From: Octopus vulgaris
Lineage: Eukaryota
Direction: 5' to 3'
Assembly: GCA_951406725.2 (NCBI GenBank)
Contig: OX597841.1
Location: forward strand, 26,288,001-26,352,000
DNA length: 64,000 nt
The position numbers were made by a program, and so were the translations under genes. The notes beneath the pieces are model-generated. The model had not been told where the DNA came from and did not search any database. It saw only the letters and a list, made by a program, of their open reading frames with translations. The first letter of the stretch is position 1. Each line of letters opens with the position of its first letter. Positions 28,391 to 28,837 of the stretch are shown here, in pieces.

Positions 28391-28490
28391 ATATATAGCA
28401 ATATATTTGCATACAGTTTTTCGAGATCATTGACGAAAAGTTACTGGAAAAACGATATAAATATTTGCATTGGGACCCCCTTTCATCGAA

Positions 28491-28561
28491 AACCGGTGAT
28501 TGTCGTACGCTGATGACAGGTCAAAACCTAGAAACTGCAGTCCGTGCGTATCACTTAGGTT
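28491..28561 (+). ncRNA. Type I hammerhead ribozyme motif with extended stem I
   Basis: CGTACG-CTGATGA-C-AGGT-CAAA-ACCT-A-GAAA-CTGCAG-TC-CGTGCG; stem I extends through GGTGAT/ATCACT and AACC/GGTT; predicted cut after GTC at 28542. Confidence 0.8.
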
Positions 28562-28837
28562 GACGAGGGAAGGGTGACCTCCCTTTGCAAATACCATCGG
28601 GGCACAGAAAGTGTGCCTAAAGCCAGCTGGAGACGATGCTCTCCTGGGGCTACAAGCTACAGTAACACCCACCCTTAGTGGTTAGCCATATTGAGATGGC
28701 AAATATACCACACACACACACACACACACACACACACACACACACACACACACACACACACATACATATATATATATATATATATATATATATATATATA
28801 TATATATATATATATATATACATACACACAGACACAT

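Follow-up and report, generated by a model that had tools for sequence, protein, structure and literature searches.

Retrozymes, small repeats that encode hammerhead ribozymes, are the closest described relatives of the element reported here. In mussels they form units of 350-390 bp (Cervera and de la Pena, 2020; PMC7229834). Their RNA is ligated by RtcB, and the same study leaves open both how retrozymes are transcribed and which element mobilises them (PMC7229834). A preprint that proposes an origin of retrozymes from the pseudo-LTRs (pLTRs) of Penelope-like elements (PLEs) argues transcription and mobilisation from co-occurrence and similarity alone (bioRxiv 10.64898/2026.07.22.740005). PLE insertions themselves show partial tandems, an inverted 5′-truncated copy and, on one side, a tail of 30-40 bp (PMC8557442). 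Newt satellite 2 has an snRNA-type promoter (PMC2220036), and LINEs of the Tx1 clade insert into specific targets: Tx1L in Tx1D, Keno in U2 and Tx1-Mar in Mariner-N4 (Kojima, 2015; PMC4494074). For octopus, a 2026 repeat annotation reports active L1-Tx1 and Penelope families, and the words “ribozyme” and “retrozyme” are absent from its main text (PMC13282606).

We analysed a 64,000-nt stretch of the Octopus vulgaris genome (hereafter, the window), in which a first-pass annotation had marked a hammerhead within an element of about 250 nt. Taken together, the evidence makes it quite probable that this element is a 5′-truncated, likely dead copy of a 355-bp non-LTR retrozyme, whose family is likely transcribed from a predicted internal snRNA-type promoter, is predicted to self-cleave and is likely returned to the genome by a Penelope-like element that copies its RNA in circular or multimeric form. 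The features of the window copy are as follows.

28407..28709, + strand: copy of the hammerhead repeat, 5′-truncated, about unit positions 46/52-353, delimited by similarity to the 29 nearest copies.
28426..28431, + strand: PSE-like hexamer position, with a private G>T change at 28430, at -59 from 28485; putative promoter role.
28485..28498, + strand: A28485, where transcription is predicted to start, with the 14 bp that a site-specific LINE duplicates in other copies; no insertion here.
28491..28509, + strand: 5′ strand of the extended stem I (28491-94, 28495-500, bulge 28501-03, 28504-09), with covariation.
28510..28516, + strand: C3-A9 strand of the hammerhead core, with C3-G8 in this copy and U3-A8 in the sister subfamilies.
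28517..28530, + strand: stem-loop II, with the C10.1-A11.1 mismatch at its base, 3-4 pairs and an A-rich loop of 4-6 nt.
28531..28542, + strand: G12-A15.1 and stem-loop III, whose palindrome spans 28534-41; the predicted cut follows C28542.
28543..28594, + strand: 3′ strand of stem I and the long rod that extends stem I back to 28462.
28601..28700, + strand: downstream hairpins conserved in the family (28601-17, about 28623-50, 28685-700).
28704..28714, + strand: shared 3′ end of genomic copies, about unit position 354; this copy lacks the optional 45-nt tail.

A genome search with the window element (2.8 Gb, 227 contigs) returned 2673 candidates. The best 29 other copies among the 40 that were scored are 94-96% identical to it across 28407-28709; an alternative alignment extends from 28406 to 28714, with 92% identity to the unit of locus L031. 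In other copies the bases 5′ of 28407 are those that follow 28709, so the unit is circularly permuted and 354-357 nt long. This full unit is non-coding (the window element likewise has no meaningful ORF across it), and its core has at least 332 exact matches genome-wide. The window copy comprises about 303-309 of 354 nt, carries one ribozyme and runs at its 3′ end into a (CA)n microsatellite. The size of about 250 nt first given was thus too small, as similarity to other copies begins near 28407. Its supposedly complementary ends depend on A28461, present in 4 of the 29 copies, and A28703, present in 2; the bases at 28462-69 pair with 28586-93. A MITE or other DNA transposon, suggested by this apparent terminal complementarity, was rejected: the element extends past these ends, and their pairing depends on minority bases. 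The earlier description as a monomeric retrozyme copy stands as regards the retrozyme: the repeat is non-coding, multi-copy and partly tandem, with a covarying hammerhead and a palindromic stem III. It fails as regards the monomer, since a copy shorter than one unit and with a single ribozyme could not by itself give a circle joined at 28542/28543.

Two other repeats lie in the window. Just upstream, at 28230-28390 on the minus strand, is a very high-copy SINE-like repeat, a thousand-fold deeper in sequencing runs, which may resemble octopus SINEs. At 46381-47053, also on the minus strand, is a second hammerhead-like repeat with a 174-bp period and four cores among (TAA)n; in these cores an unpaired A follows A9, and stem III is of the AACGUU type. 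A stretch 75-92% similar to this repeat was found near one GIY-YIG locus.

The ribozyme motifs of the window copy are where they had been placed: CUGAUGA at 28510-16, GAAA at 28531-34 and GUC at 28540-42. The extended stem I pairs 28504-09 with 28543-48, 28495-500 with 28550-55 and 28491-94 with 28558-61, at predicted pair probabilities of 0.80-1.0, and stem II (28518-21/28526-29), the palindrome (28534-41) and the hairpins at 28601-17 and 28685-700 are likewise present in the sequence. The element thereby has the hammerhead core (CUGANGA, GAAA and NUH, three stems, stem I open). The 28461-28708 segment folds with a z-score of -4.13, and none of 200 shuffles was equally stable. Stems II and III are missing from the structure of lowest predicted energy for the monomer (-22.3 kcal/mol, against -15.5 kcal/mol for the hammerhead fold), and the predicted values in the monomer are 0.1 for stem II and 0.0 for stem III. 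The proposed Rfam hammerhead search gave no match, either at the gathering score across the window or at E-values up to 10 for 28300-28800. The proposed genome search was productive, and recovered tandem multimers (28 adjacent core pairs), stem covariation and core-conserving copies (at least 332 cores).

The base of stem II departs from the usual hammerhead. Position 10.1-11.1, described as the most conserved stem pair (PMC3088659) and usually a Watson-Crick G-C, is C-A in the window copy. The first-pass annotation had regarded this C28517-A28530 mismatch as the lone defect of an otherwise canonical ribozyme, and it proves to be the majority state in the 29 nearest copies. Exact matches to the core comprise 245 with C at 10.1, 29 with another base there and 58 with a U3-A8 core; reversed-pattern controls had no matches, and a 30-mer near the 3′ end of the unit has 271 exact matches. 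None of the 29 matches with another base at 10.1 has G-C at 10.1-11.1. We also gathered 152 distinct hammerhead-like sequences using core patterns, a set in which intact cores are over-represented and sequences are related by descent. In this set 81 have C-A at 10.1-11.1, and G-C at this pair is confined to sequences with U at position 3. As read from these sequences, the C10.1-A11.1 mismatch is the family consensus. In the sections of PMC7229834 and PMC3088659 that we drew on, we found no precedent for C-A at this pair and a single kind of exception, a U-U at the base of helix II in axolotl that is compatible with cleavage (PMC7229834).

Other positions vary in concert. Among the 152 sequences, positions 3-8 are C-G in 111, U-A in 33, U-G in 7 and C-A in one, the second stem II pair (10.2-11.2) is A-U in 101 and G-C in 40, and stem III is palindromic in 135, with five different palindromes. 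Natural U3-A8 hammerheads have been described (PMC3088659). For covariation we used 23 subfamily representatives picked by hand. Double changes occur in 15 of 25 pairs, a count reached by none of 500 shuffles and compared with 2-6 in slid controls; these counts are of sequences drawn with core patterns, and represent few independent events. The double changes fall on pairs that the hammerhead requires, including the tertiary 3-8 pair. By this sequence comparison, the subfamilies covary in stems I and II, swap C3-G8 for U3-A8 and keep a palindromic stem III. Within a single RNA background the family thus provides a range of naturally occurring hammerheads, with C3-G8 plus C-A, U3-A8 plus G-C, and five palindromic loops.

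Several variant forms were noted alongside these. A U4C core change is present in 18 of the 152 sequences, and three tandem pairs (L303, L304 and L317) carry it in both units. L063 (2396-3246) holds a 17-fold tandem array with a 50-bp period, built from unit positions 125-175; these cover the 5′ half of the hammerhead and leave out stem III. Loci L206, L207 and L208 hold two more distant hammerhead repeats of about 370 nt, with head-to-head arms and the same upstream hexamer as the unit; one has U-U at the base of stem II and was entered by the LINE described below, and one is about 70% similar to the unit.

Adjacent cores 352-358 nt apart occur as 28 pairs genome-wide, of which one (L316) is unrelated sequence. 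The longest array has 10.2 units at 99% identity, with the U3-A8 core variant, and supplies nine of the 28 pairs. Both cores are strictly intact in 11 of the 20 pairs that were fetched from these 28, at three places, all in the U3-A8 subfamily. No pair with two strict cores belongs to the C3-G8 subfamily of the window among the 20. Among the pairs fetched, consecutive tandem units with complete hammerheads, as in retrozymes, are thus found in the U3-A8 subfamily alone, and the window copy is single. In other respects the unit falls within the range of non-LTR retrozymes, being a non-coding unit of 150-450 bp with a GC content below 50% and one type I hammerhead. Natural cleavage-to-cleavage monomers (354-357 nt, GC 0.41-0.43) were recovered from four of seven loci and from none of the other three; all four are predicted to fold as stable, self-paired circles, as expected of a retrozyme (z -3.4 to -4.9, with 0 of 40 shuffles as stable in each case).

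None of the sequencing runs on record as RNA contained the element. Contigs of four runs that we guessed to be RNA and of three large DNA-like runs cover it with the same rise in depth toward the 3′ end, and a depth step near the ribozyme is also present in the large DNA-like runs. Contigs from the runs place the hammerhead family in two further organisms, three in total.

To examine insertion ends we chose 43 loci by the 3′ 30-mer (50 fetched, 7 of them removed as repeats of a place already included) and kept 71 segments of at least 55 nt. Their 3′ ends are at about unit position 354 in 38 segments, at the end of a tail about 45 nt beyond in 29 and elsewhere in 4; across the same 71 segments the 5′ ends are scattered. 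Segments are arranged head-to-head in 24 of the 43 loci, and in 21 of these 24 pairs the tail is on one arm only. The copies therefore combine a fixed 3′ end, 5′ truncation, partial tandems, an inverted arm and a one-sided tail, which are the features of PLE-mobilised sequence. Of the 71 segments, 28 traverse the ribozyme cut site and eight are longer than one lap; no segment has its 5′ end within 6 nt of that site. Segments that traverse the cut site require a template longer than one cut-to-cut linear monomer, and both a circle and an uncut multimer fit them.

This ambiguity bears on a different reading, in which the repeat is non-coding and PLE-mobilised, the hammerhead of the window subfamily is barely or no longer active, with C10.1-A11.1 as the inactivating change, and copies arise from read-through multimers without circles. 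We consider this unlikely. In its favour, uncut RNA would explain the copies that traverse the cut site equally well, the missing tandem pairs with two strict cores and the predicted misfolding of the monomer agree with it, and 8 of 9 predicted Xenopus retrozyme dimers were uncleaved when tested (bioRxiv 10.64898/2026.07.22.740005). Against it, once the mismatch had arisen the window subfamily still went on to fix G-C in place of A-U in stem II, a compensatory change, and kept both core and palindrome, and the axolotl U-U, at the same position, does not prevent cleavage. A family that is predicted to self-cleave remains our preferred reading.

The genome has many GIY-YIG frames, and several intact RT/GIY-YIG frames of 781 codons could supply the enzyme. 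Those in L269-L271 have a CxxC linker and an upstream frame of 359-378 codons, and no clear hammerhead adjoins them. In 38 loci around GIY-YIG matches (from 150 scored of 6136 candidates), no sequence was shared between the unit and PLEs. Two apparent associations were rejected on inspection: a unit near a PLE in L274 was inserted separately and lies 600 nt past the PLE end, and two same-strand copies 5.3 kb apart, which could have passed for PLE pLTRs, are one unit split by a LINE. It seems very improbable to us that the repeat is what remains of an autonomous PLE, either its solo pseudo-LTR or the product of a deletion. Copies of the repeat do have PLE-type ends, tails and inversions, and Xenopus retrozymes resemble pLTRs (bioRxiv 10.64898/2026.07.22.740005); however, beyond the lack of similarity to the 38 PLE loci, the 5′ neighbour of a unit is its own tail, an inverted arm or unrelated flank, the sole long coding element found inside units is an APE-RT LINE, and the hammerhead is of the extended rather than the minimal PLE type. 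We thus retain a separate retrozyme that a PLE would copy.

The LINE is about 5 kb long and has two ORFs, ORF1 with a CCHC motif and ORF2 with APE, RT and zf-RVT domains. It was found splitting two repeat copies, and searches with its two ends gave 179 and 215 candidates, of which 40 were scored and 30 fetched for each end.

L096:1256-6214, L097, L145-L174 and L209-L238: LINE of about 5 kb at one site of the repeat.

The 3′ end of the LINE is directly followed by the hammerhead repeat in 28 of 30 loci. The repeat also precedes the LINE 5′ end in 28 of 30, of which 27 have the exact site and one has a deletion. At each end, the other two loci are stacked LINEs with the target repeated. The site is equivalent to 28485 in the window, 25 nt before the hammerhead core. 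In 15 loci whose two sides were paired by coordinates, the 14-bp duplication matches the spelling of the host subfamily exactly in 9, nearly in 4 and not in 2. The flanks belong to subfamilies 72-92% similar to the unit, and the LINE copies are about 94% alike. Given such diverse hosts and host-spelled duplications, the insertions are independent. A second LINE family, 83% identical to the first, lies within the repeat at L205:1785-7515. This second family, at 96% identity, is also found directly upstream of U2 +1 in 2 of 25 U2 loci (L282 and L289); in L291 and L297, relatives at 72% lie within 1.7 kb of U2. The ORF1 CCHC knuckle, the APE, RT and zinc motif of ORF2 and a target specificity above 20% of flanks are those of the Tx1 clade. 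A protein search gave one homologue at 27%, and the best solved match is human L1 ORF2. By its predicted architecture, the LINE is L1/Tx1-like.

As the repeat abuts the LINE 3′ end in 28 of 30 loci, it might be taken for the 3′ part, or a SINE-like partner, of the LINE and moved by it. In L147 (571-2003), an inverted tail-bearing arm is joined directly to 5′-truncated LINE sequence, followed by the rest of the repeat, which could also suggest such a link; this join could reflect a LINE-containing repeat RNA copied in one piece, or a deletion. The partnership is already largely refuted by the subfamily-specific duplications, which place the LINE inside pre-existing units, and the contrast between variable flanks and uniform LINE copies, the same LINE lineage at U2 +1 and the many repeat copies without a LINE (most of them) also speak against it. 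We give it the least credence of the alternatives considered. The LINE is better regarded as a parasite of the repeat.

The LINE site is also the predicted start of transcription. We fetched 25 of 48 U2 matches, which represent 22 distinct upstream regions, and in 20 of these 22 a hexamer is found at -57 to -61 of the U2 start. The same hexamer lies -57 to -62 from the LINE site in all 27 sister repeat upstream regions. The chance of finding it at such a spacing is about 0.001 per region, and it is, with its overlapping shifts, the only hexamer common to half of both the U2 and the repeat sets. The placement of this one hexamer, together with its spacing, suggests that the repeat, like newt satellite 2, has an internal promoter of the snRNA type, here a candidate one. 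In the 10-unit array, most units have the hexamer in a variant form. The T at 28430 that alters it in the window is private to that copy (shared by 0 of 29), and with a mutated hexamer and a single ribozyme the window copy is likely dead. U2 and the repeat start with the same four bases, so either sequence reading or promoter tethering would fit the targeting of the LINE.

In combination these results point to the following cycle. RNA polymerase II would start at A28485, 59 nt after the PSE-like hexamer, and in a tandem copy transcription would continue into the next unit. The hammerheads are predicted to cleave 3′ of GUC, and to do so best when two of them pair by their palindromic loops III, as for the palindromic loop III of axolotl (PMC7229834). 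Each subfamily has one feature expected to weaken the ribozyme, C10.1-A11.1 with C3-G8 or U3-A8 with G10.1-C11.1, which would slow cleavage and lengthen the life of the circle. As in known retrozymes, RtcB would ligate the monomer into a self-paired circle. A Penelope-like RT/GIY-YIG protein may then prime at one set position, about 170 nt 3′ of the cut site; by running round the circle it would regenerate the upstream promoter and yield partial tandems. The predicted start site would serve the L1/Tx1-like LINE as a target, as at U2 +1; the insertion itself is observed in other copies.

A broader interpretation is more tentative, and we hold it to be possible rather than probable. These retrozymes may be parasites of snRNA transcription that depend on circular RNA for the retention of their upstream promoter, that tune their ribozyme down by C-A at 10.1-11.1 or by U3-A8, and that are themselves parasitised by a LINE that finds snRNA-type starts through promoter-bound factors or the shared +1 sequence. 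If so, U2 genes and ribozyme repeats would exchange a single LINE family, which at the repeat would gain an upstream promoter and a downstream self-cleaving 3′ end.

Our literature search turned up no account of the family, and none of a LINE with a hammerhead repeat as its target; Repbase, Dfam and the supplement of PMC7229834, which lists more retrozymes from invertebrates and may include a cephalopod one, may hold prior annotation. The retrozyme kind is already known, and what this family adds is a promoter-like motif, PLE-type ends, core variants and a site-specific parasite. Like the metazoan non-LTR retrozymes of mussel and axolotl (Rtz_353/HHR_Amex2; PMC7229834), the octopus unit is non-coding, with GC below 50% and an extended type I hammerhead, and it shares with them a two-pair stem III with a tetraloop, a mismatched basal pair in helix II, tandem copies, a stable predicted circle and PLEs in the same genome. 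It differs in that the mismatch is C-A rather than U-U, in its U3-A8 sister subfamilies, and in copies that are mostly dispersed, truncated and head-to-head rather than in long arrays; it is known here from genome sequence. In the sections of PMC7229834 that we drew on, no cephalopod is named among retrozyme hosts.

Newt satellite 2 (PMC2220036) is likewise a hammerhead repeat with an internal snRNA-type promoter (a putative one in octopus) and a palindromic loop III. In octopus, by contrast, the promoter is proposed from one hexamer and a spacing shared with U2, the host is of another phylum and stem III has two pairs. The octopus copies resemble PLE insertions (Craig et al., 2021; PMC8557442) in their partial tandems, inverted 5′-truncated arm, tail at one end and microsatellite neighbours, whereas the unit is non-coding, its tail is about 45 nt rather than 30-40, and no sequence links it to the PLEs examined. 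With Penelope-type ends that lack detectable PLE sequence, and a promoter-like motif placed as in U2 genes, the family offers testable structural answers on how retrozymes are mobilised and transcribed. The LINE, like those of the Tx1 clade (PMC4494074), is a two-ORF APE-RT element that uses one site of a multicopy target, stacks in tandem and has U2 or mobile elements as targets. Unlike those LINEs, it targets the predicted +1 of a hammerhead repeat and, in one 96%-identical family, U2 +1 as well. This kind of target is new, and the system is simple enough for sequence reading by a LINE endonuclease to be set against guidance by the start site.
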